From positions 1 to 64,000 of the IMG/VR virus record IMGVR_UViG_3300030333_001364: a DNA stretch of 64,000 bases, one strand, 5' to 3'. A program made the position numbers and the translations under genes. This document shows positions 1-64,000 of this stretch, piece after piece. The first letter of the stretch is position 1; each line of letters opens with the position of its first letter. Under the pieces are notes generated by a model that saw nothing but the letters and a program-made list of their open reading frames with translations, was not told where the DNA came from and did not search any database. This DNA comes from a virus. Lineage: Duplodnaviria; Caudoviricetes.

Positions 1-192
1 CATTACCCTGATGATGACCCATATCAGGAGAGCAATGAAATCTATTATAATATGGTAGATTTCTTAGATGACTCAGAAGTACATCAAATCTGGGAAATTG
101 TCGGCAAGGCAATGGACAGAAATAATATTGTCACAACAGACAATGAAAGTCTATCAGTCAGGGTGTATGATGAAATCAATGACGAGGACTAA
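1..192 (+). CDS. Partial (5'-truncated) acidic early hypothetical protein
   Basis: Frame 1 is open from base 1 to TAA at 190-192 (HYPDDDPY...VRVYDEINDED). Acidic composition matches neighbouring early ORFs. Preferred over track ORF 68..256. Confidence 0.6.
   Translation, partial: HYPDDDPYQESNEIYYNMVDFLDDSEVHQIWEIVGKAMDRNNIVTTDNESLSVRVYDEINDED
113..171 (+). promoter_or_regulatory. Early promoter cassette (palindrome + -10), embedded in CDS
   Basis: TGGACAGAAATAATATTGTCACA 113-135. TATGAT at 166-171, the same spacing as the other copies. Confidence 0.55.
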
Positions 193-195
193 CTC

Positions 196-348
196 ATGGA
201 CATTCAAGACTTTGACATTTACCCACTACTGTCATTCAGACAGCGTGAACAACTAACAGACTTATTTTGTGAGGTTGTTGCTGAACATGGGTATGACCTT
301 GATACCTTTGACTGGAATATCATAGGCACAGGAGCAAAGAAGCAATGA
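196..348 (+). CDS. Small early hypothetical protein (50 aa)
   Basis: MDIQDFDIYPLL...GAKKQ, translated by hand. ATGA overlap with the next ORF. Confidence 0.65.
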   Translation: MDIQDFDIYPLLSFRQREQLTDLFCEVVAEHGYDLDTFDWNIIGTGAKKQ

Positions 349-533
349 GTACTCAAAGAACTATCACACTCTTAGATGAGTGTCATGGTATCATTGACGA
401 GCGTGATACTGCTATGTCACATGACTTAGTTGAGTGTATGTTTCATTTGTTAGACATACATCAATTAGAACAATTACAAGACATCATTACAAATCAATTT
501 GCTAATGAATATTATGACTCTATAATCAAATGA
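345..533 (+). CDS. Early hypothetical protein
   Basis: Track ORF, ATGA-coupled on both sides. Confidence 0.7.
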   Translation: MSTQRTITLLDECHGIIDERDTAMSHDLVECMFHLLDIHQLEQLQDIITNQFANEYYDSIIK

Positions 534-895
534 CTATCTCAAAAACACAACTTGAATATCTTACTCGACCACTAACTGAGGATACTGAATTTTTTATTCA
601 TAAATCAGATTTAGAACTCATACTCAGGACATTCAACTATCTCTTACAAAAACCTGTCACAAATGTGTTTACAGATTCCCCACTATGGGGTTGTCAATGT
701 AAAGAGTTAGCAGAACATTTGACAATTCAAATCAGTTCAACTCTAAACAGAAGTACTCGTAAGAACTGGCAACTCGTCAAGTACAATAACCCTAGTAGTG
801 GTAGGTATGGGAGACACCCTTACTCACATTATGGAACATACCCTGCTATTAGAGAAGAGAAGTACCCTTTCAATCATACAGTAGGTAAGTACTAA
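530..895 (+). CDS. Early hypothetical protein
   Basis: 121-aa ORF, translationally coupled to its neighbours. Confidence 0.7.
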   Translation: MTISKTQLEYLTRPLTEDTEFFIHKSDLELILRTFNYLLQKPVTNVFTDSPLWGCQCKELAEHLTIQISSTLNRSTRKNWQLVKYNNPSSGRYGRHPYSHYGTYPAIREEKYPFNHTVGKY

Positions 896-1098
896 TGAAA
901 ACTATTACTTACACTAATGATGAACTACACGCTTTTAGTGAGCATGTAACATGGTGCATCTATGAACAAGATCAACCAGTAGATGATAACTTAGAAAGTT
1001 TCATTCACAAAACATTATATGATAATCAAGCAAAAACTGTTGCTAACGATTATAATGAATGTGTTGACACATTATTGGACAGTATGAACAATGCCTGA
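895..1098 (+). CDS. Early hypothetical protein
   Basis: TAATG coupling; acidic 67 aa. Confidence 0.7.
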   Translation: MKTITYTNDELHAFSEHVTWCIYEQDQPVDDNLESFIHKTLYDNQAKTVANDYNECVDTLLDSMNNA

Positions 1099-1264
1099 TA
1101 TTTCACATTTCACAAGAGATCAATTACTTGCTTTGATGAATACCGTAGATTTTGCTATGGATAATGATGCAAGTTATGAGGAATATACCATTATAAAAAG
1201 TGGCACAACTGATCTACAAAGTATAAGAGATATACTGTACAATAAGATCATAGAACAGGGGTAA
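1091..1264 (+). CDS. Small early hypothetical protein (57 aa)
   Basis: MPDISHFTRDQLLALMN...KIIEQG, translated by hand; fills the gap between ORFs. Confidence 0.6.
   Translation: MPDISHFTRDQLLALMNTVDFAMDNDASYEEYTIIKSGTTDLQSIRDILYNKIIEQG
1184..1243 (+). promoter_or_regulatory. Early promoter cassette, embedded in CDS
   Basis: TATACCATTATAAAAAGTGGCACA 1184-1207; TACAAT 1238-1243. Confidence 0.5.
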
Positions 1265-1268
1265 ACCT

Positions 1269-1472
1269 ATGACACATTTCAACTCATCATTTCCTAACTC
1301 ATCAAAACAAGTTGGTTCGTTTACTGACATTATAGGTAGAGAATATACCATACTTCGTGAGCGTGTAAATGGTTACGTCCAATTCAACGTCAATGGTATG
1401 ATCTTTGACAATTTCCAAGAGGTTCGTGAATACAGAGAAGAACTACAGTCTCATGGAGTTCGTGTATCGTGA
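1269..1472 (+). CDS. Early hypothetical protein
   Basis: 67-aa ORF downstream of a promoter cassette. Confidence 0.7.
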   Translation: MTHFNSSFPNSSKQVGSFTDIIGREYTILRERVNGYVQFNVNGMIFDNFQEVREYREELQSHGVRVS

Positions 1473-1611
1473 AACAGAACTTATACTTGAAACTATTACG
1501 CAGACCGCCATTTTTCAAGATAGTGACTATTAGAGAAGAATTATCTAAGGTCACTCAAGAGAACTGGCGAGACATCAAATTAGACATTGACAACTATTTC
1601 AGAACATCATC

Positions 1612-1878
1612 ATGACTTGCAATTTACCCCCTAACGCTTCTAAAGAAGAGATCACAACTGACATGGTCGAACAGTTTGTAGAGATACAACTGGACAACGC
1701 AGACACTCAATTCTTATATGAACTTGCTAAAGATCATTTACTGCAAGCATATGAGACGCTAACGTATGAAGAGGTAAAAGAAAGGATAATCTCATTATAC
1801 GATAAGGAACTATGGTTAGAGTTGTTAGATAATGCAACTTTTACCTACAATAGCAAGAATATACCAGAAAGATATTGA
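1612..1878 (+). CDS. Early hypothetical protein
   Basis: 88-aa acidic, helical-looking ORF. Confidence 0.7.
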   Translation: MTCNLPPNASKEEITTDMVEQFVEIQLDNADTQFLYELAKDHLLQAYETLTYEEVKERIISLYDKELWLELLDNATFTYNSKNIPERY

Positions 1879-1939
1879 GTGTACCAGTAATAATATTGTC
1901 ACATTATCCATTGCAAGTGTTGATAGTGCTGATTATCAT
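1879..1939 (+). promoter_or_regulatory. Early promoter cassette
   Basis: GTGTACCAGTAATAATATTGTCACA, then TTGCAA (1911)-17 nt-TATCAT (1934). Confidence 0.75.
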
Positions 1940-1965
1940 GTGTTTATACACATCAATTTATTATT

Positions 1966-2145
1966 ATGCAAATCAGACTAGATGAGCGTTATTCACAATA
2001 CTTAGAGTGGTGCGGTTGCCCTCGTCCTAAGTATACTGCAAGATTTTGTGATGACCTATTAGGTTATTTCGATACTCAAGAGGAAGCAATTACAATGTGT
2101 TTAGAACACCGCAGAGATTCACTTATTGACATGGGGTTATTATGA
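1966..2145 (+). CDS. Small early hypothetical protein (59 aa)
   Basis: MQIRLDERYSQYLEWCGCPRPKY..., translated by hand. TTATTATG start context; ATGA overlap downstream. Confidence 0.7.
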   Translation: MQIRLDERYSQYLEWCGCPRPKYTARFCDDLLGYFDTQEEAITMCLEHRRDSLIDMGLL

Positions 2146-2360
2146 ATTTCATAGTAACTGATGTTGAATATGATTTCAATGACTCACTAAGTGAGATATA
2201 TTCTATCTCAAAAGATGAGCAAGATCAAATAGTTGCTGACACGTTAGGATTATGGTCAGCAACTGATGAGGACGATTTGATAGAGGAAATCACTTGTGCT
2301 AGTGGGTGGTGCATCAAATCTATTGACTATGATATACAACTCAAGGGTGTGCCAGTATGA
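2142..2360 (+). CDS. Acidic cyanophage early hypothetical protein
   Basis: DEDDLIEEIT..GWCIKSIDY motif, recalled from cyanomyovirus early genes. Confidence 0.75.
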   Translation: MNFIVTDVEYDFNDSLSEIYSISKDEQDQIVADTLGLWSATDEDDLIEEITCASGWCIKSIDYDIQLKGVPV

Positions 2361-2408
2361 ATACTGTCTACTTTGACTTGTATTTCAAATCAGATCAATT
2401 ATTATACT
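2347..2408 (+). promoter_or_regulatory. Early promoter cassette
   Basis: GTGTGCCAGTATGAATACTGTCTAC; TTGTAT at 2378; TATTAT/TATACT at 2400-2408. Confidence 0.7.
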
Positions 2409-2430
2409 AAAAGATCAAACAATTATTCTT

Positions 2431-2739
2431 ATGAACTCAGGGTATCACACCACATCTAACACCGATCTAAACAATGAGTTATCAAACTTTATTGATTATG
2501 TCGATTCATTCTATGGTCAGAATGACCCTGTTTATCCTATGAAATCTATTGTAGGCGATCTACCACTTGATAAGAGTGCTATTCTTGATGCCACTTATGA
2601 ATACCTCTCAACTATCTCTAAGAGAAATTCTGACACCTATACATGGGGTGGTGGGGATTCACTTGATAGAGAAAGGGTTAGAGATATTCTATTGAATAGT
2701 GGATACTTTCTTACACACTTACAACATAAGGAGTTTTAG
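2431..2739 (+). CDS. Conserved cyanophage early hypothetical protein
   Basis: FIDYVDSFYG...WGGGDSLDRERVRDIL motif. Confidence 0.75.
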   Translation: MNSGYHTTSNTDLNNELSNFIDYVDSFYGQNDPVYPMKSIVGDLPLDKSAILDATYEYLSTISKRNSDTYTWGGGDSLDRERVRDILLNSGYFLTHLQHKEF

Positions 2740-2950
2740 AGTGAACATTTCAGAAATTCAAAAAATCAACATGTTCGATAGGTATGTTATGCGAGGTGGT
2801 TTAGATACACTAGACAGCATACAAGAATTATGTCAAGAAGTTATGACTATGTGTGGTATGGACATACCAACGGATAGTGATATGTTCAATGATATAGTAA
2901 CTGACGTGATAAAGAAATCAATCCCTAACACTCATAGGAGACTCAAATGA
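2699..2950 (+). CDS. Early hypothetical protein (true start probably GTG 2741 or ATG 2771)
   Basis: Track ORF, ATGA-coupled to the next gene. Confidence 0.6.
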   Translation: MDTFLHTYNIRSFRVNISEIQKINMFDRYVMRGGLDTLDSIQELCQEVMTMCGMDIPTDSDMFNDIVTDVIKKSIPNTHRRLK

Positions 2951-3291
2951 GAACATTTTTATATAAAGACTATCTCAATGACAATTATGGTAAGTTTTTA
3001 CCTATTCAGACTATTGAGAGTGAGTATTTTGGACGTCACTTCTTTATTGACATTGCCTTTGAGTTCATTACAGCACCCTCTTATAAGGACGGTGGGTATG
3101 ATGAGCAAGGATTTCAGTATGTAAGTGAAATGGTACAAGAGAATGGACTAGACGGTATTGACCTATCAAAACTATTTGACATCTATCGTGACCTTACATG
3201 GCAAGAAAATCATGATAGCAATGAAAAACATAGTAGTGAGTTCGCTTCATATATTGATGACGTTGAAAAGGGAAATATAGAATACTTATGA
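2947..3291 (+). CDS. Early hypothetical protein
   Basis: 114-aa ORF preceded by AGGAG. Confidence 0.75.
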   Translation: MRTFLYKDYLNDNYGKFLPIQTIESEYFGRHFFIDIAFEFITAPSYKDGGYDEQGFQYVSEMVQENGLDGIDLSKLFDIYRDLTWQENHDSNEKHSSEFASYIDDVEKGNIEYL

Positions 3292-3345
3292 CAGTTATAT
3301 TACTGTCACATGAGTATTCTATTCTCATTCAATAAGGATTATACT
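3288..3345 (+). promoter_or_regulatory. Early promoter cassette
   Basis: Perfect inverted repeat TGACAGT-TATATT-ACTGTCA; TATACT at 3340. Confidence 0.75.
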
Positions 3346-3367
3346 ACTATCAGATACAACAATTATT

Positions 3368-3586
3368 ATGAACCCAAATCAACCAACATTCTTATTCACA
3401 TGTGAGACACCTAACAAATTTGTAGGTGGAGACGTGTATTCTAATGATCTCAATAGTATAGAGGACTATTGCATAGAAATGGGTATAGATCATGGTTACA
3501 GTATTGTTAGAAACAATGTAACTGGGGAAATCGTATTTGAGCATGGCGATCAAATGATGCAACAAATAGAGGACGGTATCATATAA
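3368..3586 (+). CDS. Early hypothetical protein
   Basis: TTATTATG start directly after a promoter cassette. Confidence 0.7.
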   Translation: MNPNQPTFLFTCETPNKFVGGDVYSNDLNSIEDYCIEMGIDHGYSIVRNNVTGEIVFEHGDQMMQQIEDGII

Positions 3587-3792
3587 TGGCATATTGTGAT
3601 TCATGTGGTAACTATGATGACTCTCATGAGTCATCTAAGGACACTCAAGACTATCAACCTGACTTATATTACTATTGGCAATATCCCTTAGAAGAGGACT
3701 ATCTAATGCCCAATGGATATGAGTGCATGTGTGAAATATGTTTTGATATTGCTAATGAAGAGGGCAAAATTCAATGGAAGTGTGCCAGTTGA
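3586..3792 (+). CDS. Small Cys-rich putative Zn-binding protein
   Basis: CDSC near the N-terminus and CMCEIC near the C-terminus. Confidence 0.65.
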   Translation: MAYCDSCGNYDDSHESSKDTQDYQPDLYYYWQYPLEEDYLMPNGYECMCEICFDIANEEGKIQWKCAS

Positions 3793-3842
3793 GATAGTGT
3801 CACATTCGTTATTGATTTCTTCGTTCATTCGTTTATTATATT
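3781..3842 (+). promoter_or_regulatory. Early promoter cassette
   Basis: TGTGCCAGTTGAGATAGTGTCACA; TTGATT at 3812; TATTAT at 3834. Confidence 0.75.
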
Positions 3843-3864
3843 ACTATAACAAACATTATTTCAA

Positions 3865-3993
3865 ATGAGTAATCTAAACAATGATCTCTTACTTGAATCA
3901 CTCTATGAGCAAGTAATCGAAGAGAATCCAAATTTATCTGAATCAGAACAGATAGAACTTACAAAACAGTTATTCGAGGACATGATACAATGA
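3865..3993 (+). CDS. Small early protein (42 aa)
   Basis: MSNLNNDLLLESLYEQVIEENP...LFEDMIQ, translated by hand. Confidence 0.65.
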   Translation: MSNLNNDLLLESLYEQVIEENPNLSESEQIELTKQLFEDMIQ

Positions 3994-4115
3994 TCTATGA
4001 ACCAAAAACTGAGACTGTCAAGTTTTATAATGCAATGGCACTATATTTTGATGACAGCATCACATTTGAAGAATTTACAACTATCGTGGAGGATTTGAGA
4101 AATGAGGACATGTAA
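3990..4115 (+). CDS. Small early protein (41 aa)
   Basis: MIYEPKTETVKFYNAM..., ATGA-coupled. Confidence 0.55.
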   Translation: MIYEPKTETVKFYNAMALYFDDSITFEEFTTIVEDLRNEDM

Positions 4116-4245
4116 GGAAACAAGAGTGATTCTATCCCCTAAGGATAGAGCATATCTCAGAATAGAAACAAGTTATCGTGATCTCGCATATATCTACTTC
4201 ACTATGATAGAGCAAGATTTTCGTGTATTGAACAAACCAATGTGA
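4102..4245 (+). CDS. Small early protein (47 aa)
   Basis: MRTCKETRVILSPKDR..., with GGAGG upstream; stop codon lies inside the next cassette. Confidence 0.5.
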   Translation: MRTCKETRVILSPKDRAYLRIETSYRDLAYIYFTMIEQDFRVLNKPM

Positions 4246-4301
4246 CAGTTATCAAACTGTCTACAAATCGTCCAATAGTCTCACTATTCGATTATTATGA
4301 T
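4241..4301 (+). promoter_or_regulatory. Early promoter cassette
   Basis: TGTGACAGTT-ATCA-AACTGTCTAC; TATTAT/TATGAT at 4293-4301. Confidence 0.75.
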
Positions 4302-4326
4302 ACCATAAGCAATTCATTTTATTATT

Positions 4327-4521
4327 ATGCAATTTCAAATCGGAGACTACGTCAAGACTACTGAAGAGTTCAATAACTCTCAATGTGTCACATGTGTAGG
4401 TAAGGTTATTGGTCTAGGGGATAACTATGCTATCGTAAGAAATTATGATAGTACTTGTGAAGAATTAGACTTTATGAGTTTATTTCAATCTGACTTGCAA
4501 TTAGTGAGAGATCTAATCTGA
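4327..4521 (+). CDS. Early hypothetical protein, possible SH3-like/KOW beta-barrel
   Basis: FQIGDYVK...GKVIG...AIVR...DLQLV pattern. Confidence 0.65.
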   Translation: MQFQIGDYVKTTEEFNNSQCVTCVGKVIGLGDNYAIVRNYDSTCEELDFMSLFQSDLQLVRDLI

Positions 4522-4603
4522 TCTCTCATTTATCCTAATTAGAGAGGCGAAAGCGTGTATCAAATTATACATTACTTCGTCTATGCGTGTATGTGTGTAC
4601 GCA

Positions 4604-4664
4604 TGTGACACTTTTATTACTGTCTACTACTGTCACTATTACTCACAATACCGACTAATATAGT
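4604..4664 (+). promoter_or_regulatory. Early promoter cassette
   Basis: TGTGACACTTTTATTACTGTCTAC; TAATAT/TATAGT at 4656-4664. Confidence 0.7.
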
Positions 4665-4686
4665 ATCAAGTAAATCTTTTATTATT

Positions 4687-4905
4687 ATGACTCTTTCAAT
4701 TACAAAACGTGAGGTATTATCTCAAGTCAGATATAATCTCAAAGTTGAATCTATGAGACGTAAAAACATAGGTATCAAACAAATGAGTAAATTAGATAAA
4801 GTCTTTTATTGGTCAGATTTTACTGAAGCATTGTATAGAGATCAAATTATAACTGAATCTCAAATCCGTAGGTGGTCTAATCCTTATGAATTTCGTAACT
4901 ATTAG
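4687..4905 (+). CDS. Early hypothetical protein
   Basis: WSDFTEALYRDQIITESQ..RWSNPY motif; TTATTATG start. Confidence 0.75.
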   Translation: MTLSITKREVLSQVRYNLKVESMRRKNIGIKQMSKLDKVFYWSDFTEALYRDQIITESQIRRWSNPYEFRNY

Positions 4906-4920
4906 AGATAAAATCAAAGA

Positions 4921-4981
4921 GTGTGACAGTTATATTAGTGTCACATTCTTTGTACAATTCTCATGAACTTACGTTTATCAT
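4921..4981 (+). promoter_or_regulatory. Early promoter cassette
   Basis: GTGTGACAGTTATATTAGTGTCACA; TATCAT at 4976. Confidence 0.75.
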
Positions 4982-5009
4982 AGGGTTATACAACATTTAT
5001 TCAATCGTT

Positions 5010-5501
5010 ATGGAATTTGATCTCAACCAACTAACCAACAAATATCTTTGGTCTACATTCTCAAAACCGTCTCAAGATACGTCTTTGTTTATGAGAATGT
5101 ATTGTAACCAAAAAACTGTCAATACTGATGACCATAAAATTGGTAATACTGAGACTAAGGTACGTCAAGACGGTTCTAAAATTGTAGATGTATTTCTACA
5201 TGGTAACCTTATATGCTCATATGACCCTACCAACTATGAGAATGAAAAGGTAAAATTGTATAGTGCTAATCACTTCACAAAAACAACTAAGGATAGACTC
5301 AACGCTATTCTATACTTGCATACTAATAATACTGTTAGAATCAAGCAAGTTAGAGGTAAGTGGATAGTATCAGATACAAAAACAGATACGGAAATAAATT
5401 TCTATGAGGGCATGGTAATTTTTCAAAAACCACTCACTCTTGCTGATGTATCAAATGATACAAAGATAGAAACTCAAATGGTTGTGGAGTGGACGGTATA
5501 A
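5010..5501 (+). CDS. Conserved cyanophage early hypothetical protein (start moved to ATG 5010)
   Basis: VFLHGNLI...TKTTKDRLNAIL motif. The upstream part of the track ORF is the promoter cassette. Confidence 0.75.
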   Translation: MEFDLNQLTNKYLWSTFSKPSQDTSLFMRMYCNQKTVNTDDHKIGNTETKVRQDGSKIVDVFLHGNLICSYDPTNYENEKVKLYSANHFTKTTKDRLNAILYLHTNNTVRIKQVRGKWIVSDTKTDTEINFYEGMVIFQKPLTLADVSNDTKIETQMVVEWTV

Positions 5502-5547
5502 AAACCGTCCATTTTTACTTCCATTATTCAGATTATGCTTTTATAAT
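5489..5547 (+). promoter_or_regulatory. Early promoter cassette, compensatory variant
   Basis: Perfect inverted repeat TGGACGGT-ATAAAA-ACCGTCCA; TATAAT at 5542. Confidence 0.7.
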
Positions 5548-5574
5548 GGATACATAAGCAATTTTATTTCAATC

Positions 5575-5916
5575 ATGACTACTCTAAAAACAATTCTACT
5601 AGATGCAATAAACAATGATCTAGCATCTAGCACTTATGATAATCCTATTCTAAACAATAAGGATTATAAAAACTGGTCAGATAGTGACAAATTTGAATGG
5701 TGCTTTGATAGGTACATGGTAGAGGTAGGTGGTTATGAATCCCTAGAATATTGGTTCTCAGGGTTAGCACTTAGTTCAATTCCATTTACTTATTATGAAA
5801 TTGAAAAGTTAGGATACAATGCTGAGACATTCTTTCAAGACTTATCTGACGAATTACAACTAATTACAGGTTATTCAGACAGAAAAGCATTTTATAACAG
5901 AAAGATACGCTCATAG
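5575..5916 (+). CDS. Early hypothetical protein (start moved to ATG 5575)
   Basis: LEYWFSGLA..IPFTYYEI motif; follows a promoter cassette. Confidence 0.7.
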   Translation: MTTLKTILLDAINNDLASSTYDNPILNNKDYKNWSDSDKFEWCFDRYMVEVGGYESLEYWFSGLALSSIPFTYYEIEKLGYNAETFFQDLSDELQLITGYSDRKAFYNRKIRS

Positions 5917-5951
5917 GTATCATTTTATACCAGGCGCATAGGTTAGACTTC

Positions 5952-6061
5952 TTCGTCTAATCTATTCGTCTATTATACTAATTACTTCGTCCATTCGTCT
6001 ATTTTTCTTATTATGTTCGTCTATTCGTCTAAATTACTGCAATTACTAGGTATTTCGTCTA
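5952..6061 (+). repeat. Cluster of seven TTCGTC(T/C)A direct repeats
   Basis: TTCGTC at 5952, 5965, 5986, 5994, 6016, 6024 and 6054, all on the + strand. Confidence 0.85.
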
Positions 6062-6262
6062 TTCTCCTAGTATGCTTATATGCTCATATTGTTTATAATA
6101 TAACCCTATTATCTACATTATGAACTATAATAAAAAGGTATAAATAAATGTTTTTTATTTCTTTATACATTATTATAAATGTGCTATGTAATTGTACTCT
6201 TAGCGAGCATGCTATAAAAAGTCAAGTACATTTGATACAATGCTCACAAATCCACACATGAG

Positions 6263-6295
6263 TTTTCCACAGGTTTTTCCACAGAGTTTTCCACA
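6263..6295 (+). promoter_or_regulatory. Three tandem cyanobacterial-type DnaA boxes
   Basis: TTTTCCACA at 6263, 6275 and 6287 (12-bp period); degenerate AAATCCACA at 6248. Confidence 0.7.
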
Positions 6296-6316
6296 GGCAC
6301 TATGATACACTCACAG

Positions 6317-6480
6317 GTAACAAATGTTACACAGCACAATGATACAGCAGCATGTATCAAATGTTACATGCACACTATGAGGTATAATATGATACAATAA
6401 AAATAACAGTACATTTGATATTCTGTCAAGTACATATGATACAATCTCATGTATCAAATGTTACATGTATCAAAATATAC
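6317..6480. promoter_or_regulatory. Array of NtcA-type GTA-N8-TAC palindromes
   Basis: Perfect sites at 6317, 6354, 6382, 6451 and 6467. TGTATCAAATGTTACATG occurs twice. Confidence 0.6.
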
Positions 6481-6689
6481 AATGTATAAAATGTACATAT
6501 CTTTTTTCCAGGAATTATGCTAGACTTAGGAGGGTGACTTTTGTAGAGATTATTTCATGGCAGGGGGAGTGTCGAACATTTTCTAAAGTCCTACCCCAGA
6601 CTTGCTATAACCAGTATAGCAAAATCAGAAAAAGACTGCTGTACATATGATACAATTTGATGTGACATATGATACAAACTCATGTAACA

Positions 6690-6748
6690 GAAACAGTTGA
6701 GAAATTGGCACATTGCCTATTGTGTAGATTTGAAATCCAGACTAATAT
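6690..6748 (+). promoter_or_regulatory. Early promoter cassette
   Basis: GAAACAGTTGAGAAATTGGCACA, then TTGTGT (6720)-17 nt-TAATAT (6743). Confidence 0.7.
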
Positions 6749-6781
6749 AGGTACATACAAAACATTATTTCATTCTTTATC

Positions 6782-7108
6782 ATGTTCGGAACTGCACCTA
6801 ACACTTACAAAATCAACACTAACTTCAATAATGTTGAGTTCAATGTAAGTACTAAGGCATGTCTCAAAGTTATTAGAAACAATCCTAAGGGAATCAACCT
6901 AACTGACATAGTTAGAACTTTACACCCTGATTTTGATTTCAATCTTCTAACTAAGCATAACTTCGCTAAAGCAATTCAACCCTTAGTCGTGAATCGTCAA
7001 GTGAAAGCGATTATGTCAGCATCTGGAAAGCGTGTTCAGATGTACAAACCAGTGAAACCTTCAAAGCGTGTTATCTTTGCTCAGTTCATAAAAGATATTA
7101 CTGCTTAG
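6782..7108 (+). CDS. Basic putative winged-helix DNA-binding protein
   Basis: Helix-GINLTDIVRTL-helix (FAKAIQPLV..RQV), then a beta-hairpin wing (KAIMS..GKRVQMYKP). K/R rich. Confidence 0.55.
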   Translation: MFGTAPNTYKINTNFNNVEFNVSTKACLKVIRNNPKGINLTDIVRTLHPDFDFNLLTKHNFAKAIQPLVVNRQVKAIMSASGKRVQMYKPVKPSKRVIFAQFIKDITA

Positions 7109-7122
7109 TTTCCAGGATTTGA

Positions 7123-7157
7123 CAGGTGGGTTCGTTCCGTTTACCCACCTCTGTTTT
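7123..7157 (+). terminator. Putative intrinsic terminator
   Basis: AGGTGGGT/ACCCACCT stem followed by CTGTTTT, right after the 6782 gene. Confidence 0.55.
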
Positions 7158-7231
7158 ATAAATCATGTAACACAGTTCGTCCCATCTGTCAACCACATAA
7201 CAAGCGTAATGTTCGCACCTCACACTCTCAG

Positions 7232-7262
7232 GTATCAGATTATACAGTGTATAATTTGTTAC
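7232..7262. promoter_or_regulatory. Two further tandem GTA-N8-TAC palindromes
   Basis: GTATCAGATTATAC 7232-7245 and GTATAATTTGTTAC 7249-7262. Confidence 0.55.
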
Positions 7263-7430
7263 CTTTTTTATTTAATGTTAGCGTTGCCGATATTAATAAG
7301 TACCGTCTTTCTAACCTACAAACGTTTACCAACGAGCGAGGTACCGAGAAATCAAAATTTTTTTCCCGTACCAAAAACCCCCTATAGGTTTTAAAAAGCC
7401 TAGATACTCTGTATCGTTGCTCGGTATATT

Positions 7431-7937
7431 ATGATAACTTTTGATACAAGTCCCTTAGAGTACTATAGGGGAAAAGGCAAAGATCCCATACGTGGCAGTA
7501 CTAACAATGACACCTCTACATGGTCATTCATGTTAGTCAAGACAATTACATATGAAAGAGAAGAGCAATACCAGAGAGTAATCGACGCTTTAGATAATTT
7601 GACCAGAGAAAATTTTTCGAGTATAAAAGTGCCCTCCTTTGCTTTTTGTGCCGAGGGTATGAGTATTCAGTATCAGGTTCAGTATATCAAAGGAGGAAGT
7701 ATTATATCCAGAGAGGAATGGTATACTCTATATGATGAACTGGTTGAAAGAGATAGTGAATACAGTTTTACAGATTATAAAAGAAAGAACTTCATCAAGT
7801 ATCATGGTAACATCTATCCAGTAGATCTGAACAGTTATAGCAAGACACCGATTGAAGTCAGACGTACCCTGTGGAAAAGAGAAGAAAAGATGCCAAAGAC
7901 ATTATTCAATCAACAGGGAGAGAAGATATTCTACTAA
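7431..7937 (+). CDS. Protein-kinase-like (PKL) fold protein
   Basis: Ordered motifs VKT, KVP, YIKG, DYKRKN (DxxxxN catalytic loop) and PVDLN (DFG-equivalent). Confidence 0.55.
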   Translation: MITFDTSPLEYYRGKGKDPIRGSTNNDTSTWSFMLVKTITYEREEQYQRVIDALDNLTRENFSSIKVPSFAFCAEGMSIQYQVQYIKGGSIISREEWYTLYDELVERDSEYSFTDYKRKNFIKYHGNIYPVDLNSYSKTPIEVRRTLWKREEKMPKTLFNQQGEKIFY

Positions 7938-8143
7938 GGTTTGACAACAAAGTACTTGTGTAGTACTGCAACCTGTTCGTCGTACTTAGCAATGGTATTG
8001 AGTTCTTTCTCGATTGCATCTGTGATATCTGAATGTTCACCGATACCAGCAGGGTTGGATAGGTAGACTTCTACATTTGCTACATGCTTGGCAATGTCTC
8101 CTTTTGCATGATCGAGTAATGCGTTGACTAATTGATCTCTCAT
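7934..8143 (-). CDS. Conserved marine-phage hypothetical protein
   Basis: NVEVYLSNPAGIGEHSDI..AIEKEL motif. Confidence 0.8.
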   Translation of the reverse strand: MRDQLVNALLDHAKGDIAKHVANVEVYLSNPAGIGEHSDITDAIEKELNTIAKYDEQVAVLHKYFVVKP

Positions 8144-8642: not shown

Positions 8643-8673
8643 TATAAAACTTGTGTCTCTCTATATTATAACA

Positions 8674-54726: not shown

Positions 54727-54740
54727 TAAGGACGCATTTT

Positions 54741-56972: not shown

Positions 56973-56987
56973 TAGAGGAACCAAACA

Positions 56988-57623
56988 ATGGCACTAGATA
57001 GAAACATTTTTTCTATACCTAACAACGAGAGATCAATCGACTCTTTCAAATCAAGACTCATTGGTGGTGGTGCTCGTCCTAATCTATTTGAGGTTGAGCT
57101 AAACTTCCCTTCAGGTGTAGGTATATTCGACGATGAGATAGAGAACACTACTCATCGTATGATGATCAAAGGAGCACAGTTACCAGCGTCTAACATCGCT
57201 GAAGTCATTGTTCCCTTCAGAGGTCGTCAACTCAAGGTTGCAGGAGATCGTAGATTCGATCCTTGGACAATCACAGTTATCAACGATAACGATTTCAAAC
57301 TAAGAACAGCATTCGAGAGATGGGCAAACTACATCGTCAAAGTATCTGACGGTTCAGGAACCCTAAACCCTGCTGACTACTACACTGATTGGGTAGTAAA
57401 CCAGTTGGGTCGTGCTAACACAGATCTAAATGTAAAAGGAAAGGACAACCCTGCTGCATTACCTGTACTAAGACGCTACCAAATGGTTGGTTGCTGGCCA
57501 AGTGCAGTAAGCACAGTTGAACTATCTTATGATCAGGTAGACGCTGTAGAAGAGTTCCAAGTAACACTTCAAGTTCAGTACTGGACTGCTTATGATGGCA
57601 ATAATGCCGATTCTGTAGTATAA
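56988..57623 (+). CDS. gp19: Tail tube protein gp19
   Basis: GGARPNLFEV and FRGRQLKVAGDRRF motifs. Confidence 0.95.
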   Translation: MALDRNIFSIPNNERSIDSFKSRLIGGGARPNLFEVELNFPSGVGIFDDEIENTTHRMMIKGAQLPASNIAEVIVPFRGRQLKVAGDRRFDPWTITVINDNDFKLRTAFERWANYIVKVSDGSGTLNPADYYTDWVVNQLGRANTDLNVKGKDNPAALPVLRRYQMVGCWPSAVSTVELSYDQVDAVEEFQVTLQVQYWTAYDGNNADSVV

Positions 57624-57648
57624 TAGATAGAATACAAGTAGGAATATT

Positions 57649-59319
57649 ATGGCCAAGCTTTTTGGTTTCTCAATTGAAGACGACAATAAGAAGAAGAAAG
57701 GTATAATCAGCCCTGTTGCTCCTAATAACGAGGACGGTGCTGATTATTTTCTATCTTCGGGATTTTATGGTCAGTATGTAGATATTGAGGGAGTATTCAA
57801 AACAGAATTCGATATCGTAAAAAGGTATCGTGATATGTCATTGCATCCAGAATGTGATACAGCGATTGAGCATGTCGTAAATGAGGCAATCGTTTCTGAT
57901 ATGAACGATAGTCCTGTAGAGATAGACCTTGATAACCTAAACATAGGTCAACCATTAAAGAAAGTAATAAGAACCGAGTTCAAGAAAGTAAAAGACTTAC
58001 TAGAGTTTGATAAGAAGTCACACGAAATTTTTAGAAACTGGTATGTAGATGGTAGAATATTCTATCATAAGGTAATTGACGTACAGAAACCAGACGAAGG
58101 AATACAAGAACTAAGATATATCGATGCTCTCAAGATCAAGTTGATGAGAGTCAAACCTACTGATAAGGAGAAGGGTGTAGTTGCTATCCCTACACAAGAT
58201 CAGGGTACAGAGACAGTCAATAAAGACACAAAGGTAACAGAGTTCTACACATACTATCCACAAGGTGTAGCACAAAAGTATGGATCAGTTGCTGGTAAGG
58301 GTATAAGAATAGCAAAGGATGCTATATGCCATGTCCACTCTGGATTAGTAGACAGAAATAAGAAGATCACACTATCATATCTACACAAAGCGATCAAAGG
58401 TCTAAACCAGTTACGTATGATCGAGGACTCTCTCGTCATCTACAGACTGTCTAGAGCACCTGAGAGACGTATATTCTACATTGATGTAGGTAACTTACCT
58501 AAGGTCAAGGCAGAGCAGTATCTACGTGACGTTATGAGTAGGTACAGAAACAAGTTAGTATATGATGCAAACACAGGAGAAATAAAAGATGACAAGAAAT
58601 TCATGTCAATGCTCGAAGACTTCTGGTTACCAAGAAGGGAAGGCGGAAGAGGCACTGAGATCTCTACGCTACCAGGTGGACAAAATCTTGGAGAACTTAC
58701 GGACATCGAGTACTTCCAAAAGAAATTATATCGCTCACTAAACGTACCTGAGTCAAGAATAGGTGCTGACAGTGGATTCAATCTAGGTAGATCATCAGAG
58801 ATTCTAAGAGACGAACTTATGTTCAGTAAGTTTGTAGGTAGATTGCGTAAGAGATTCAGTGCACTATTCTTAGATCTATTGAAGACACAACTTATCCTCA
58901 AGAACATAGTTACACCAGAGGATTGGGAGAAGATGGCAGAGCACATACAGTTTGATTACTTGTATGATAACCACTTTGCTGAACTCAAAGAGACTGAGTT
59001 GATGAACGAAAGACTCAATCTTATGGTTGCTATTGAACCTTACATCGGCACATACTATTCAAGAGACTATGTGAAGCGTAAGATACTGCGTCAGACAGAT
59101 GAAGAGATAGAAGAAATGGCAGAAGAAATGGAAGAGGAGAACGCAACTGGTGTAGGTGTACCGCTAGAAACGCAGAATGCTATCATGCAAGGACAGATAG
59201 AGAACGGACAGATTGGTACTAATCAGAAAACAAATATGGGTAAAAATGGTAAAGACCCTGAGGTCAACGGGAAATCTACAGAAGCACCCGAATTAAACAT
59301 CAAGAAAGCTAAGATATAA
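57649..59319 (+). CDS. gp20: Portal protein gp20
   Basis: RAPERRIFYIDVGNLPK and EDFWLPRREGGRGTEI motifs. Confidence 0.98.
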   Translation: MAKLFGFSIEDDNKKKKGIISPVAPNNEDGADYFLSSGFYGQYVDIEGVFKTEFDIVKRYRDMSLHPECDTAIEHVVNEAIVSDMNDSPVEIDLDNLNIGQPLKKVIRTEFKKVKDLLEFDKKSHEIFRNWYVDGRIFYHKVIDVQKPDEGIQELRYIDALKIKLMRVKPTDKEKGVVAIPTQDQGTETVNKDTKVTEFYTYYPQGVAQKYGSVAGKGIRIAKDAICHVHSGLVDRNKKITLSYLHKAIKGLNQLRMIEDSLVIYRLSRAPERRIFYIDVGNLPKVKAEQYLRDVMSRYRNKLVYDANTGEIKDDKKFMSMLEDFWLPRREGGRGTEISTLPGGQNLGELTDIEYFQKKLYRSLNVPESRIGADSGFNLGRSSEILRDELMFSKFVGRLRKRFSALFLDLLKTQLILKNIVTPEDWEKMAEHIQFDYLYDNHFAELKETELMNERLNLMVAIEPYIGTYYSRDYVKRKILRQTDEEIEEMAEEMEEENATGVGVPLETQNAIMQGQIENGQIGTNQKTNMGKNGKDPEVNGKSTEAPELNIKKAKI

Positions 59320-59322
59320 ATA
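59315..59322 (+). promoter_or_regulatory. Late promoter
   Basis: TATAAATA consensus. Confidence 0.75.
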
Positions 59323-59346
59323 GGGTTAGCGTTACTTTAAATTATA

Positions 59347-59547
59347 ATGGACACCAATGAATTGCTAGACATGATGTCTTCAGATGAGGCTTCTTCATCC
59401 GAAGTTCATGATGCAATAAAAACCTTACTCTATCAGAAGAGTGCAGAGAGGGTGGATCAAATAACACCTACAGTCGCTGCTGCTCAGTTTGGTAAAGAAG
59501 AGGAACCAGCTGACGCTGTTGAATCAGAACCGCAAGAAGAGGAGTAA
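59347..59547 (+). CDS. Small acidic prohead-core-region protein (gp67 position)
   Basis: IKTLLYQKSAER motif; synteny after gp20. Confidence 0.7.
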   Translation: MDTNELLDMMSSDEASSSEVHDAIKTLLYQKSAERVDQITPTVAAAQFGKEEEPADAVESEPQEEE

Positions 59548-59548
59548 A

Positions 59549-60109
59549 ATGCCACAGGTATTAAATTTAGTCTCTGATCATGGAGAACTGAGTAGTAACG
59601 ATGCTACTACAGTTGCTTCTGGTGCAAAGGCTGTGAAAAGCGGTATTTTATACATTGCTTGTAGTTCCGAGAAAAAGTCAGGACACATCTCTGTATGTAA
59701 TACCATCGCCCAAGCGGGTGTAGGATCTTTTCACGTAGAGAAAGGTGGAGACTTTTTATATCGTTACGGACACCCCGCACACGCAAAGGCAGTGTCTGTT
59801 TCAAAAGCAAATCCATGTGTAATTACACTGGATAGACAAGATACAAAGTTCAGAGTTGGTGATTATGTTACCATGACTGGATCTTCCGTAGGTGGTTACA
59901 ATACTACCATTGCTCATAAAGAGATAACTGCTATACAGATACCACAGAGATCTAACGAATACACATGTAAGATCACTGTTGATGCGAATACATCATCTCT
60001 CGCTGACTTCACAGGTGAAGCAGAGTTGACTAAGACAGTTATTTTTAGACTGGCACCTGAAACATCAGACGGAAGTACAATGCATTTACACGAGGTAAAT
60101 CTAGGATGA
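59549..60109 (+). CDS. Hypothetical virion protein
   Basis: ATG 59549 follows GGAG; beta-rich. Confidence 0.7.
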   Translation: MPQVLNLVSDHGELSSNDATTVASGAKAVKSGILYIACSSEKKSGHISVCNTIAQAGVGSFHVEKGGDFLYRYGHPAHAKAVSVSKANPCVITLDRQDTKFRVGDYVTMTGSSVGGYNTTIAHKEITAIQIPQRSNEYTCKITVDANTSSLADFTGEAELTKTVIFRLAPETSDGSTMHLHEVNLG

Positions 60110-60753
60110 AGCTAATCTCAGAAGAAATTGAATCAGTAGAAGTTATTACCGAAGAAAAAAACGGTAAGAAAACTCTCTATATTCAAGGACCTTTTTTACA
60201 AGCAGAAATAGTCAATCGTAATAAAAGATGCTACCCATTAGACACTATGGTCAATGAGGTGAAGCGTTATAACGAGGCACATGTAAATACAGGTCGTGCT
60301 CTAGGTGAATTAGGTCACCCAGACGGTCCTCAAATCAACCTTGATAGAGTATCACACAAAATAGTATCTTTACAACAAGAAGGAAATAACTTTGTAGGTA
60401 AGGCACAGATATTGTCAACACCTATGGGTAAGATCGCTTCTTCTCTCATCGGTGAGGGAGTGAAGTTAGGAGTTTCATCTAGAGGAATGGGATCTATAGT
60501 CTCAAGAGACGGTGTAAACTATGTTGGAGAAGATTTTATGCTCGCAACTGCTGCTGATATAGTGGCAGATCCCAGTGCACCAGACGCTTTTGTCGATGGT
60601 ATCATGGAAGGAAAGGAATGGGTTTGGGAAGGTGGCATGCTACGTGAAAAGGCATGCGAGGGCGCAAAGAGAGAAATCAATACTCTCGTAGATGACAAAA
60701 TGTTGGAGGCAAATAAGCTAAGATTATTCGCTAACTTCTTGTCAGAACTATAA
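60106..60753 (+). CDS. gp21: Prohead protease gp21
   Basis: ALGELGHP, GVSSRGMGS and ADPSAPDAFV motifs. Confidence 0.96.
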   Translation: MKLISEEIESVEVITEEKNGKKTLYIQGPFLQAEIVNRNKRCYPLDTMVNEVKRYNEAHVNTGRALGELGHPDGPQINLDRVSHKIVSLQQEGNNFVGKAQILSTPMGKIASSLIGEGVKLGVSSRGMGSIVSRDGVNYVGEDFMLATAADIVADPSAPDAFVDGIMEGKEWVWEGGMLREKACEGAKREINTLVDDKMLEANKLRLFANFLSEL

Positions 60754-61906: not shown

Positions 61907-61940
61907 TCAATTTTTAAATTACACCCAAAGGTAAAGCCAA

Positions 61941-63347
61941 ATGTTTAATTCTGGACAACTCCAGAAGAAGTGGCAACCACTCTTAGAGGCAGAAGGATTA
62001 GATAAAATCCAAGACAACCACAGAAGAGCAGTTACCGCACAACTTCTAGAAAACCAAGAAAGATTTTTAAGAGAGGAGAGAGCATTCTTATCAGAAGCAC
62101 CTCCTACAGTTAACACAGACCCATCAGGCACAGGAGCAGCTGGTTTCAGTGGCGGTGCTGCTGTTGGCGGTCCTGTTGCTGGTTTCGACCCAGTTCTAAT
62201 ATCTCTAATCAGGAGATCTATGCCTAACTTGGTGGCATATGACTTAGCTGGCGTCCAACCAATGAATGGTCCTACTGGACTTATCTTCGCGATGAGATCT
62301 AAGTACGACAACCAGAACGGTACAGAAGCATTCTTCAACGAACCAGATTCTGCATTCTCTGCTCAAGACTCCGATACATCATTCACACAGGGTGATTACA
62401 CAGGAGCAACTGACGGAGATTCAGACGTTGGTTTCGGTACAACTGCACAAGGTGGTGGCAACCCATCAATCTTGAACGGTGGTGCAGAGAACGCTTACTC
62501 AGTTGGACAAGGTTTCAAGACTCAACAGTCTGAAGCTTTAGGCGATGCTGCTAACAACGACTTCAGAGAGATGGCGTTCAGCATCGAGAAGGTATCTGTG
62601 ACTGCGAAGTCAAGAGCCCTCAAAGCTGAGTACAGTTTAGAACTAGCACAAGACCTCAAGGCGATCCATGGATTGGATGCAGAGGCTGAGTTAGCAAACA
62701 TCCTTTCTACTGAGATCCTTGCTGAGATCAATAGAGAGATCATCCGTACAATCTACAAGGCTGCAAGACCTGGTGCTCAAATCAATACAGCAACAACTGG
62801 TGTATTTGACTTAGACACAGACTCAAACGGAAGATGGATGGTTGAGAAGTTCAAAGGTATGATCTTCCAACTTGAAAGAGATGCTAACGCAATCGCACAG
62901 GAAACTCGTCGCGGGAAGGGTAACATCATCCTTTGCTCTGCTGATGTTGCTTCCTCTCTAACAGCTGCTGGTCAACTAGACTACACTCCTGCACTCAACA
63001 GCAACATGAATGTTGATGATACAGGTAACACATTCGCTGGTACACTCAACGGACGTTACAAGGTATACATCGATCCATTCGCTGCTAACCTAAGTGCTGA
63101 TCAGTACTACGTTATGGGATACAAGGGTTCTAACCCTTATGATGCTGGTCTATTCTATTGCCCTTACGTTCCACTACAGATGGTAAGAGCAGTTGGACAA
63201 GACACATTCCAACCAAAAATTGGTTTCAAAACCAGATACGGAATGGTTGCTAACCCATTTGCTGAAGGTACTACACAAGGTCTTGGTAGAATTACTGGTA
63301 ACAGTAACAGATACTACAGACGTGTTAAAGTTACAAACCTTATGTAA
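61941..63347 (+). CDS. gp23: Major capsid protein gp23
   Basis: GVQPMNGPTGLIFAMR, ELAQDLKAIHGLDAE and FQPKIGFKTRYG motifs. Confidence 0.98.
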   Translation: MFNSGQLQKKWQPLLEAEGLDKIQDNHRRAVTAQLLENQERFLREERAFLSEAPPTVNTDPSGTGAAGFSGGAAVGGPVAGFDPVLISLIRRSMPNLVAYDLAGVQPMNGPTGLIFAMRSKYDNQNGTEAFFNEPDSAFSAQDSDTSFTQGDYTGATDGDSDVGFGTTAQGGGNPSILNGGAENAYSVGQGFKTQQSEALGDAANNDFREMAFSIEKVSVTAKSRALKAEYSLELAQDLKAIHGLDAEAELANILSTEILAEINREIIRTIYKAARPGAQINTATTGVFDLDTDSNGRWMVEKFKGMIFQLERDANAIAQETRRGKGNIILCSADVASSLTAAGQLDYTPALNSNMNVDDTGNTFAGTLNGRYKVYIDPFAANLSADQYYVMGYKGSNPYDAGLFYCPYVPLQMVRAVGQDTFQPKIGFKTRYGMVANPFAEGTTQGLGRITGNSNRYYRRVKVTNLM

Positions 63348-63368
63348 GCGAGTTGCTTATATACTTAC

Positions 63369-63395
63369 AAGACCCCTTTACAGGGGTCTTTTTTT
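63369..63395 (+). terminator. Intrinsic terminator after gp23
   Basis: AAGACCCCT-TTAC-AGGGGTCTT followed by a T-run. Confidence 0.88.
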
Positions 63396-63399
63396 ATGC

Positions 63400-63407
63400 T
63401 ATAAATA
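63400..63407 (+). promoter_or_regulatory. Late promoter
   Basis: TATAAATA. Confidence 0.7.
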
Positions 63408-63425
63408 TGGTAGTCAAATAATACT

Positions 63426-63620
63426 ATGAAAGATCAAGGATCTATTGCTACTGGTGAAACACCAGAGACAAAATGGAATCGAGGACTTGACATTTTTATA
63501 GAGTCTGTTCATGCACCTGATCATAAACTCAGAGGTTGTGCACATAATCAGCATTGCTACACAGAGTTGATGGATATTAGAGAACATGTGCTAGAATATC
63601 TGCAAAGTTTACGAAAATAA
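63426..63620 (+). CDS. Conserved cyanophage hypothetical protein
   Basis: KWNRGLDIFIESV..PD..LRGCAHNQ motif. Confidence 0.75.
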   Translation: MKDQGSIATGETPETKWNRGLDIFIESVHAPDHKLRGCAHNQHCYTELMDIREHVLEYLQSLRK

Positions 63621-63785
63621 ATGAACGGTAGAATCAATAAAGTAATGATGGTTGCGAGAACCATGAGAATAAAACAAGGTATAATGGAAAAGAATTGGTA
63701 TCCTGAGTGGAGTGATAAAGAAAGATGGGCTGCTCAACAAGCCCTAAATAATGTTTTAGATGTTCTTGATGAATACTGGGAGTAA
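63621..63785 (+). CDS. Small hypothetical protein (54 aa)
   Basis: MNGRINKVMMVAR...WYPEWSDKERWAAQQALNNVLD, translated by hand; coupled to gp3. Confidence 0.7.
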   Translation: MNGRINKVMMVARTMRIKQGIMEKNWYPEWSDKERWAAQQALNNVLDVLDEYWE

Positions 63786-64000
63786 TGGCAGACACTAGGG
63801 TTAGAGGTGCTACACCTCCGTTCAAACTAAATGAACCTACTAATAGGAACTTCCTATCAATAGTTGGGTTCAAGTTCTTGCTGAACCGTTGCCCTAAAGT
63901 TAGTTTCTTTTGCAATCAAGCAAACATACCAACTGTAACTCTTGGTACTACAACGCAAGCATCTTACCTTCGTCAAATACCTATACCTGGCACAGAGTTA
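63785..64000 (+). CDS. gp3: Tail completion protein gp3 (3'-truncated)
   Basis: NRNFLSIVGFKF.LNRCPKV.FFCNQANIP.VTLG, translated by hand. Confidence 0.85.
   Translation, partial: MADTRVRGATPPFKLNEPTNRNFLSIVGFKFLLNRCPKVSFFCNQANIPTVTLGTTTQASYLRQIPIPGTEL

Follow-up and report, generated by a model that had tools for sequence, protein, structure and literature searches.

Avoidance of restriction sites in phages is a textbook phenomenon, said to have been described by Sharp in 1986, by Gelfand and Koonin in 1997 and by Rocha in 2001, and the depletion of a site is in itself an ordinary kind of finding. The tetranucleotide TTAA is the target of one known restriction-modification pair, MseI and M.MseI. 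Here we analyse the loss of TTAA from a stretch of 64,000 nucleotides (the window), which forms the first 64 kb of the 118,972-bp IMG/VR record IMGVR_UViG_3300030333_001364, and relate it to a restriction-modification-like cassette found in related phages. The record is classed as linear, with a CheckV completeness of 55%, and its Pfam profile is that of a T4-like cyanomyovirus. The window has a G+C content of 38.4%, and the best identities to a cultured phage are about 75% for the major capsid protein (MCP) and 69% for the DNA polymerase. Hereafter, G000 denotes this contig, L001 and L002 are stretches of it, and other G and L numbers stand for the IMG/VR and metagenome contigs and loci that were compared.

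Chloroviruses are lytic viruses that carry a type II restriction endonuclease together with its cognate methyltransferase, and their nuclease presumably degrades host DNA, the viral DNA being protected by methylation or at least methylated; chlorovirus restriction-modification was reportedly treated by Agarkova and colleagues in 2006. In T5, which transfers its DNA with a first step, and in T7, the leading or early DNA is free of restriction sites, and injection proceeds from a fixed end. T4-like phages package their DNA by the headful and have permuted ends; we know of no accepted explanation for a site-free early block in a phage that packages in this way. To our knowledge, cyanomyoviruses do not contain hydroxymethylcytosine.

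Palindrome avoidance in virulent phages has been surveyed (Rusinov et al. 2018, PMC6286503), and the main text of that survey mentions neither TTAA nor cyanophages. A study of lake Chloroflexi (PMC6329791) describes TTAA motifs carrying N6-methyladenine (m6A) along with an M.Sth20745I-like methyltransferase. Our literature search, which did not cover supplementary files, found no paper on TTAA avoidance or on a phage-borne restriction enzyme in cyanophages.

TTAA is depleted beyond composition and codon usage

The window contains 46 copies of TTAA, the first of them at position 7272, and 335 copies of AATT. An earlier reading of the same DNA, made from the letters alone (the sequence-only reading), had estimated about forty TTAA by eye, had called AATT common and had supposed that base composition predicts several hundred TTAA. 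The counts agree with all of this: the expected number is 570 from base composition, 404 from dinucleotides and 275 from trinucleotides (second-order Markov model, Markov-2). Under the last model the observed-to-expected ratio (O/E) is 0.17 (z -17.9). Even the AT-rich tract at 6085-6180, to which that reading had pointed, is devoid of TTAA at 85% A+T.

Over the whole contig, 102 copies were found where Markov-2 predicts 508. A codon-shuffle control permuted synonymous codons within genes 200 times, using 152 crude open reading frames (ORFs) that span 93% of the contig; the counts averaged 580 (sd 16), with 526 as the lowest, and the resulting ratio is 0.18 (z -29). According to the sequence-only reading, a ratio near 1 after codon and trinucleotide correction would speak against selection; with 0.18 and 0.17 after these two corrections, its proposal stands. 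Explanations of the loss by composition, dinucleotides, trinucleotides or codon usage are each ruled out by the matching control. About five in six TTAA words have been removed from the DNA of this phage.

TTAA is the sole depleted word among the 16 of the form NTAN, the remaining 15 having ratios of 0.84-1.15. The depletion is near-uniform along the contig, with ratios of 0.06-0.37 in 6-kb bins (heterogeneity chi-square p 0.05). As for the 102 residual copies, 61 lie across codons as xTT AAx and 33 as TTA A; a further 7 fall between genes, and one coincides with a stop.

TTAA is lost through synonymous codon choice

Every coding TTAA is avoidable by a synonymous change, and codon choice depends strongly on the codon that follows. 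Phe is encoded by TTT in 8% of cases before AAx codons and in 59% elsewhere, and the same holds for Ile ATT (5 vs 33%), Val GTT (4 vs 37%) and Leu CTT (6 vs 35%). Similarly, the share of TTA among Leu codons is 3.7% before codons starting with A and 33.5% otherwise. Dipeptides of F, I, L or V followed by K or N are unchanged, with O/E values of 0.85-1.11. Stop codons follow the same rule: a T stands just before 1 of 65 TAA stops, compared with 24 of 87 TGA and TAG stops (p 5e-6). Additionally, the one-step neighbours of TTAA are enriched in the codon-shuffle control (TTGA 1.35, TCAA 1.28). TTAA avoidance is a DNA-level and purely synonymous trait that leaves the proteins untouched.

The synonymous loss, the avoidance of TAA stops after T and the gain of neighbouring words all support the claim of the sequence-only reading that there is strong selection against a TTAA-recognising activity. 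Further evidence for it comes from the clade-specific nature of the trait and from the depletion of palindromes as a class, both described below.

In relatives with 83-98% DNA identity, 89 of 204 TTAA sites are retained, compared with 11,711 of 19,536 AT-rich control words (these comparisons are pooled across relatives and non-independent), and each genome compared also has private TTAA sites. Such turnover points to what would be a running mutation-selection balance and not a relic.

The trait is confined to one clade of uncultured cyanophages

Among 80 relatives from IMG/VR identified by their DNA polymerase (about 76-99% amino acid identity), 75 have TTAA O/E values of 0.00-0.57, and the five TTAA-normal ones form one clade. 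In 64 other cyanomyovirus loci (MCP identity up to 76%) the values are 0.74-1.18, pooled 0.96. Marine virus AG-345-D19 is at 1.1 and the first 100 kb of P-RSM4 at 0.90. The comparison with related cyanophages that the sequence-only reading had proposed thus separates the depleted clade from other cyanomyoviruses, which lie near 1. Judged from these relatives, the trait is long-lived and restricted to one T4-like cyanophage clade without cultured members.

Twelve loci with zero TTAA form a supported clade with 40-47% G+C. Its member G001 (84,935 bp) has no TTAA where 210 are expected, and it is a true cyanophage, since it carries psbA, psbD, petF, zwf, gnd and talC. A separate observation concerns G003 (L251 and L252), whose first 25.2 kb are TTAA-free and whose last 7 kb hold 24 sites. 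Ten consecutive N stand at 28422 of this contig, and a scaffold join, chimerism or a recombinant segment may lie behind the pattern.

On the host side, 73 high-light Prochlorococcus loci have O/E values of 0.95-1.02 (pooled 0.98), with about 14 TTAA per kb. Nor was TTAA avoidance detected in a survey of 401 genomes from the same cyanobacterial family, made with a TTTAAA/AAATTT proxy, or in the five outliers that were then sampled. Some high-G+C genomes had low proxy values, but the five of the lowest that were sampled have TTAA O/E values of 1 or more; their low proxy values therefore stem from base composition. Searches with the DNA polymerase or MCP found no member of the clade in genome or single-cell assemblies. 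The PTOX protein of the contig is 67-69% identical to that of high-light Prochlorococcus, a similarity that is not diagnostic of the host.

A presumed early-gene block is free of TTAA

As the sequence-only reading had noticed, the first 7271 positions of the window contain no TTAA; they also contain no AGCT. This stretch of small genes corresponds to the right-hand 7.3 kb of a block that measures 14-18 kb in relatives; in our contig the block is truncated by the end of the sequence. Only two of its genes gave Pfam matches, namely DUF7326 (1612-1875) and Kyano_Gp96 (4923-5498). From their size and position the genes are presumably early; a sigma-70 promoter scan was uninformative (75 sites vs 67±7). 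At the right boundary (7272..7394, plus strand) the first TTAA words occur at 7272, 7293 and 7391 in a single 91-aa ORF, the third of them at its stop codon. The boundary is conserved. G408 30788-38633 and window 4-7441 align colinearly (80-93% nucleotide identity), and the first TTAA of G408 after its own desert (38508) falls in the stretch that aligns with window 6665-7441.

On this contig alone the empty 7.27 kb is not beyond chance (the probability of a maximum gap of at least 7272 is 0.16), and a local test gives a P of 0.007 for zero copies with 4.9 expected, uncorrected for 20 bins. In G408 the desert spans 20085-38508, with 0 TTAA in 18,423 bp vs 23 in its other 20 kb (P 2e-6), and AGCT, CCGG and GGCC are likewise absent from its early block. 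In G409 (122.7 kb, O/E 0.29) it spans 46314-60341, with 0 TTAA in 14,027 bp vs 175 elsewhere (P 1e-7). The same block in 16 TTAA-normal relatives has no TTAA gap above 1.45 kb. Because G408 and G409 replicate the pattern and TTAA-normal relatives lack such gaps, the fully purged early block is a real feature of the clade. The idea of a wholly empty early region, put forward in the sequence-only reading, thus holds for the clade and is insignificant for this contig taken alone.

The sequence-only reading had suggested that the pressure may act just after DNA entry. One idea is that the block cannot afford cuts during the first minutes of infection, whatever the source of the cutter. Another is that it is exchanged between lineages with and without the methyltransferase MT1, introduced below, and so must be safe in both.

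The block also includes a 548-bp non-coding stretch rich in direct repeats (window 5917-6464). It has units of the type TTCGTCTA about six times at 5957-6076, GAGTTTTCCACAGG three times at 6260-6297, and three 35-nt units ending in CAAATGTTACA. It could be a replication origin or a regulatory region.

Relatives carry a restriction-modification-like cassette

The deserts of G408 and G409 hold three adjoining genes: a small ORF with a nuclease fold, a methyltransferase (MT1) and a second methyltransferase (MT2). The small ORF has 183 aa in G408, and an unrelated one of 213 aa takes its place in G409. MT1 is a beta-class N6_N4 methyltransferase of 255-261 aa (N6_N4_Mtase match, E 5e-49) that starts at the stop of the nuclease ORF or a few bases from it; its closest solved relatives are M.MboIIA, M.RsrI and CcrM. 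MT2 (319 aa) is common in cyanomyoviruses, and the 'dam' gene of P-RSM4 is 79% identical to it.

In 80 IMG/VR loci, the small families directly upstream of MT1 were cl0 (22 loci), cl1 (11) and cl3 (4); in other loci no small ORF occupies this place. Both cl0 and cl1 have a D...ExK motif that is invariant in each family, and the nuclease genes beside MT1 keep their catalytic residues across 30-89% identity. Profile searches of these two nuclease families against PDB sequences gave nothing meaningful. AlphaFold models of the two (pLDDT 90.5 and 81.8) matched restriction endonucleases, and the cl0 model a homing endonuclease as well. The cl1 model matches PvuII (E 1.8e-6, TM 0.57-0.60), and the cl0 model has weak matches (E 3e-3 and above), nearly all of them to I-Ssp6803I, PvuII, EcoRV, Eco15I and NhoI. 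The modelled structure suggests that cl0 is a 183-aa family with the PD-(D/E)XK restriction-endonuclease fold.

A 30-base word from window 13-42 occurs in nine metagenome contigs that overlap the start of our contig. All four that extend upstream as far as the places of the nuclease and MT1 (L482, L483, L487 and L488) carry a cl0 nuclease with MT1, while L481 and L484 extend only into MT2 and L480, L485 and L486 are too short. The cassette falls outside the window: in the closest of these overlapping contigs it is located 1.6-3.9 kb upstream of position 1. Its ORFs are intact, N6_N4_Mtase was found twice by Pfam, and the catalytic residues H76, D77, E86 and K88 have been preserved. L483 shares 96.2% identity with G000 in a 1.4-kb overlap and has 0 TTAA in 6,992 bp; L488 is 92.3% identical over 4.9 kb and has 1 TTAA in 10,587 bp.

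Other candidates for the TTAA factor were rejected. PRSM4_061 and PRSM4_062 of P-RSM4 have no homologue in any fetched locus. A conserved 172-aa ORF (orf172; in G001, L244:6287-6802), which has no family assignment, lies upstream of a Dam-family methyltransferase in many cyanomyovirus contigs and has a D...ExK-like motif, judged by eye. Among 80 loci with a homologue of it, 11 are TTAA-free and 63 have an O/E of at least 0.7.

TTAA content follows MT1 status

The median TTAA O/E is 0.66 in IMG/VR loci that bear MT1 (n = 79) and 0.96 in cyanomyovirus loci that do not (n = 80; p 2e-23). In three of five MT1 subgroups TTAA is the most depleted 4-mer by z, and in a fourth, distant one (32% G+C) it is the second.

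A sharper contrast appears among the 37 loci with a cl0 nuclease, of which 24 have an adjoining MT1, 9 are evaluable without it (at least 4 kb of downstream sequence) and 4 could not be judged. All 24 paired loci keep some TTAA (O/E 0.01-0.81). Among the nine with cl0 only, seven have none (0 vs 414 expected in all), one has 2, and L515 has 29 where 68 are expected. Zero TTAA thus occurs in 7 of 9 loci with cl0 alone and in 0 of 24 with cl0 and MT1 (Fisher p 8e-6, a test that overstates independence because the solitary-nuclease loci represent few lineages). One of the solitary-nuclease loci is on a 192,351-bp contig. When all 4-mers were compared with L515 and L508 omitted, which left 8 solitary and 23 paired loci, TTAA was the only one near-absent from the former (2 vs 468 expected) and yet present in the latter (532 vs 1375).

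These comparisons show that a genome's tolerance of TTAA is governed by its MT1 status. Most naturally, this would mean that MT1 methylates TTAA; its operon partner, with a restriction fold and conserved residues, should then cut TTAA.

Other words are avoided as well

TTAA is accompanied by other avoided words. In the codon-shuffle control all four RGCY words are down about five-fold (AGCT 0.18, AGCC 0.19, GGCT 0.21, GGCC 0.28) and the remaining NGCN words are near 1; further low ratios belong to GCGC (0.05), CGCG (0.12), CCGG (0.30) and TCGA (0.49). ACTAGT, CTGCAG, TTCGAA, CTCGAG and GAGCTC have 0 copies each where 11-36 are expected. Altogether, 8 of 16 four-base palindromes are at a ratio of 0.49 or less, and palindromes as a class rank below non-palindromes (p 3e-4). 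The complementary pair AGCC and GGCT is depleted symmetrically, which indicates DNA-level selection. Palindrome avoidance is the classical signature of type II restriction pressure, and RGCY, GCGC, CTGCAG and similar words are best ascribed to ordinary host restriction.

GATC has a ratio of 1.00, and this lack of avoidance fits protection by a Dam-family (D12) methyltransferase, which is intact at contig 77035-77847 (L001:14035-14847), outside the window. As a TTAA factor this gene was rejected, being present alike in TTAA-free, TTAA-poor and TTAA-normal relatives.

The set of avoided words varies between related lineages. AATT is low in L362-L366 (e.g. 9 vs 44 expected), P-RSM4 (L286, L287) has 0 copies of CCGG in 100 kb, and the CATG ratio is 0.35 in MT1-bearing viruses of one distant group (L451-L474). 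In the 40.4-54.4 kb region of P-RSM4, taken as the homologous early block, TTAA is near its expectation (92 vs 103.5), AGCT is low (2 vs 19) and CCGG is absent.

Where the pressure on TTAA may come from

In our view the chances are about even that a phage-borne TTAA restriction-modification module exerts a self-inflicted pressure on phage DNA. A TTAA-specific type II restriction endonuclease would then meet phage DNA in most or all infections, its source being the phage lineage itself. MT1 would methylate TTAA on the phage DNA and so protect the phage, and the nuclease would cut unmethylated TTAA, with host DNA (about 14 TTAA per kb in the Prochlorococcus loci) or rival phages as its likely targets. 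Any TTAA that escaped methylation during fast replication would be a liability, and sites would be lost singly via synonymous changes, while sister lineages that kept the nuclease and lost MT1 would have been purged of all TTAA. A cutter made in every infection would explain both the deep, clade-wide trait and the lack of a host signal. Observed facts underlie this explanation: TTAA is depleted, synonymously and in one particular clade; relatives carry the cassette, with the folds described; and MT1 status goes with TTAA content. We infer that the cassette is aimed at TTAA, that this genome carries it, and what its nuclease is for. More tentatively, and with confidence somewhat short of even, we suggest that the clade wields its own TTAA enzyme against host or rival DNA and protects itself either by methylation and thinning or by total removal of TTAA (over about 200 kb). 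This lineage would then use methylation and codon-level thinning, with a site-free early block that bears the module.

Several points weigh against a phage-borne cutter. PF01555 is absent from the 118,972-bp contig, so the cassette is not on it, and its presence in this genome is suggested by synteny with contigs that are 92-96% identical over 1.4-4.9 kb. L515 has a solitary nuclease and keeps TTAA, three loci with cl1 and MT1 are near normal (L426 1.16, L430 0.91, L442 0.84), and MT1 without an adjoining small nuclease still goes with depletion (0.08-0.52 in eight 'cl2' loci; 0.76 pooled in 24 distant loci). The few lineages behind the Fisher test belong here too. A host cutter, with MT1 as counter-defence, would produce the same difference between MT1-bearing and MT1-less loci just as readily. 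Finally, many other palindromes are avoided, three of them missing together with TTAA from the early block of G408, and one phage nuclease cannot explain those.

The sequence-only reading had named as possible sources either a host MseI-like system or a phage nuclease that degrades the host chromosome. Both options are plausible: nuclease candidates do exist in close phage relatives, and no TTAA avoidance was seen in the candidate hosts sampled. We consider it rather unlikely, though well worth attention, that hosts of the clade commonly carry an MseI-like TTAA system, with MT1 as a counter-defence and the nuclease gene as a captured passenger or a gene of other purpose. Such hosts would account for the avoidance of a whole set of palindromes, beyond any single phage enzyme, and for the purging of other words by other cyanomyoviruses (CCGG in P-RSM4, AATT in L362-L366); the graded depletion within the clade (0.06-0.57) fits variable host exposure, MT1-only loci are depleted with no nuclease gene nearby, and the cassette is not on this contig. 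TTAA m6A methylation also exists in environmental bacteria (PMC6329791, PMC9516812). Yet the 73 Prochlorococcus loci do not avoid TTAA, nor do the five outliers of the 401-genome survey, and the clade has no known host and no cultured phage above 69% DNA-polymerase identity. Moreover, the depletion persists throughout a deep clade of phages, while restriction systems of hosts tend to be patchy, and the conservation of catalytic residues in the nuclease across 30-89% identity argues for its use by the phage. TTAA might also be lost for reasons unrelated to restriction, for instance through mutation bias, DNA bending or packaging, or avoidance of RNA cleavage at UUAA or of an insertion target, and the cassette link would then be coincidental; such causes are very improbable. 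TTAA is palindromic, so strand asymmetry cannot separate selection on DNA from selection on RNA, but the symmetric depletion of AGCC and GGCT indicates the former; no other NTAN word of the 16 is affected, ratios near 1 are found in relatives that share the composition and gene order, and TTAA content follows MT1 status. An artefact of assembly or base calling, for instance systematic miscalls at a methylated motif, would fit the enrichment of TTGA and TCAA, which are one step from TTAA, but its probability is negligible: miscalls would alter amino acids, whereas dipeptides are normal and the avoidance is synonymous. Base-calling errors are excluded because the proteins are untouched; besides, the ORFs are intact and the pattern is repeated in dozens of independent contigs.

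Whatever its source, TTAA depletion is the mark of a cyanophage clade that is large, abundant and entirely uncultured, and it offers a simple sequence signature for recognising the clade and its host interactions. If the cutter is phage-borne, T4-like cyanophages would carry offensive restriction-modification modules, which bears on how cyanomyoviruses degrade host DNA selectively and on phage-phage competition in the ocean. If the enzyme is indeed a weapon, some lineages would have made a solitary restriction enzyme safe by rewording the genome alone, and this would explain how cyanomyoviruses that have no modified bases distinguish host DNA from phage DNA.

Other genes of the contig

The gene content agrees with a T4-like cyanomyovirus. 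Pfam recognised structural genes for the baseplate (gp25, gp6, gp8), neck, gp15, terminase, sheath, tube, portal, prohead protease, scaffold and major capsid protein gp23, and replication or repair genes for UvsW, gp46/47, gp45, gp44, gp43, UvsX, gp41, RegA and NrdAB. Cyanophage markers include transaldolase, PTOX, Hsp20, Kyano_Gp96 and a cyanophage outer-membrane-protein domain. The baseplate region of the window has two very long structural ORFs, one of 2,734 aa with a YHYH domain (18491-26695) and one of 2,353 aa with a DUF4815 domain (31124-38185). Outside the window, contig 92028-92987 (L002:11028-11984) encodes a TRAP-transporter solute-binding protein of the DctP family, which is also present in G001 and is an unusual auxiliary gene for a cyanophage.

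In the otherwise plus-strand genome, a minus-strand cassette at 7934-12372 stands out. Its members on that strand include a staphylococcal-nuclease homologue (9151-9645), a DUF6071/GDSL-like ORF (9742-10521), a 260-aa ORF without family assignment (10521-11303) and a sulfotransferase-like ORF (11395-12369); a carbamoyltransferase follows on the plus strand (13583-14959). We rejected the minus-strand cassette (7934-12372) as a hidden restriction system, as its members appear sulfotransferase-like or DUF6071/GDSL-like in ESM Atlas or are homologous to a nuclease common in phages. The region 7934-14962 probably serves sugar or surface modification.

Comparison with known systems

The depletion resembles site avoidance in virulent phages in that short type II palindromes are under-represented against composition and codon controls, in a synonymous and lineage-specific manner. 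It differs in that the likeliest cutter would here be phage-borne, in that the loss ranges from about 2-fold to complete in one clade, and in that one gene block of 14-18 kb is wholly site-free.

With MseI-type systems the cassette would share the TTAA target, and MT1 would share beta-class N6-adenine methylation, as the comparative data suggest. The nearest solved relatives of MT1 (M.MboIIA, M.RsrI, CcrM), in contrast, have other targets.

As in T5 and T7, an early-gene region lacks sites that are found elsewhere in the genome. Unlike in those phages, the DNA is packaged by the headful and permuted, so that 'first in' does not obviously apply, which argues against placing this phage with them; the rest of its genome is TTAA-depleted as well.

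Like chloroviruses, these are lytic viruses with a nuclease and a methyltransferase, seen here in relatives of the phage. Whereas chloroviruses have algal hosts and rely on methylation, the cyanophage clade has purged TTAA from its DNA, and some of its members seem to keep the nuclease without the methyltransferase.

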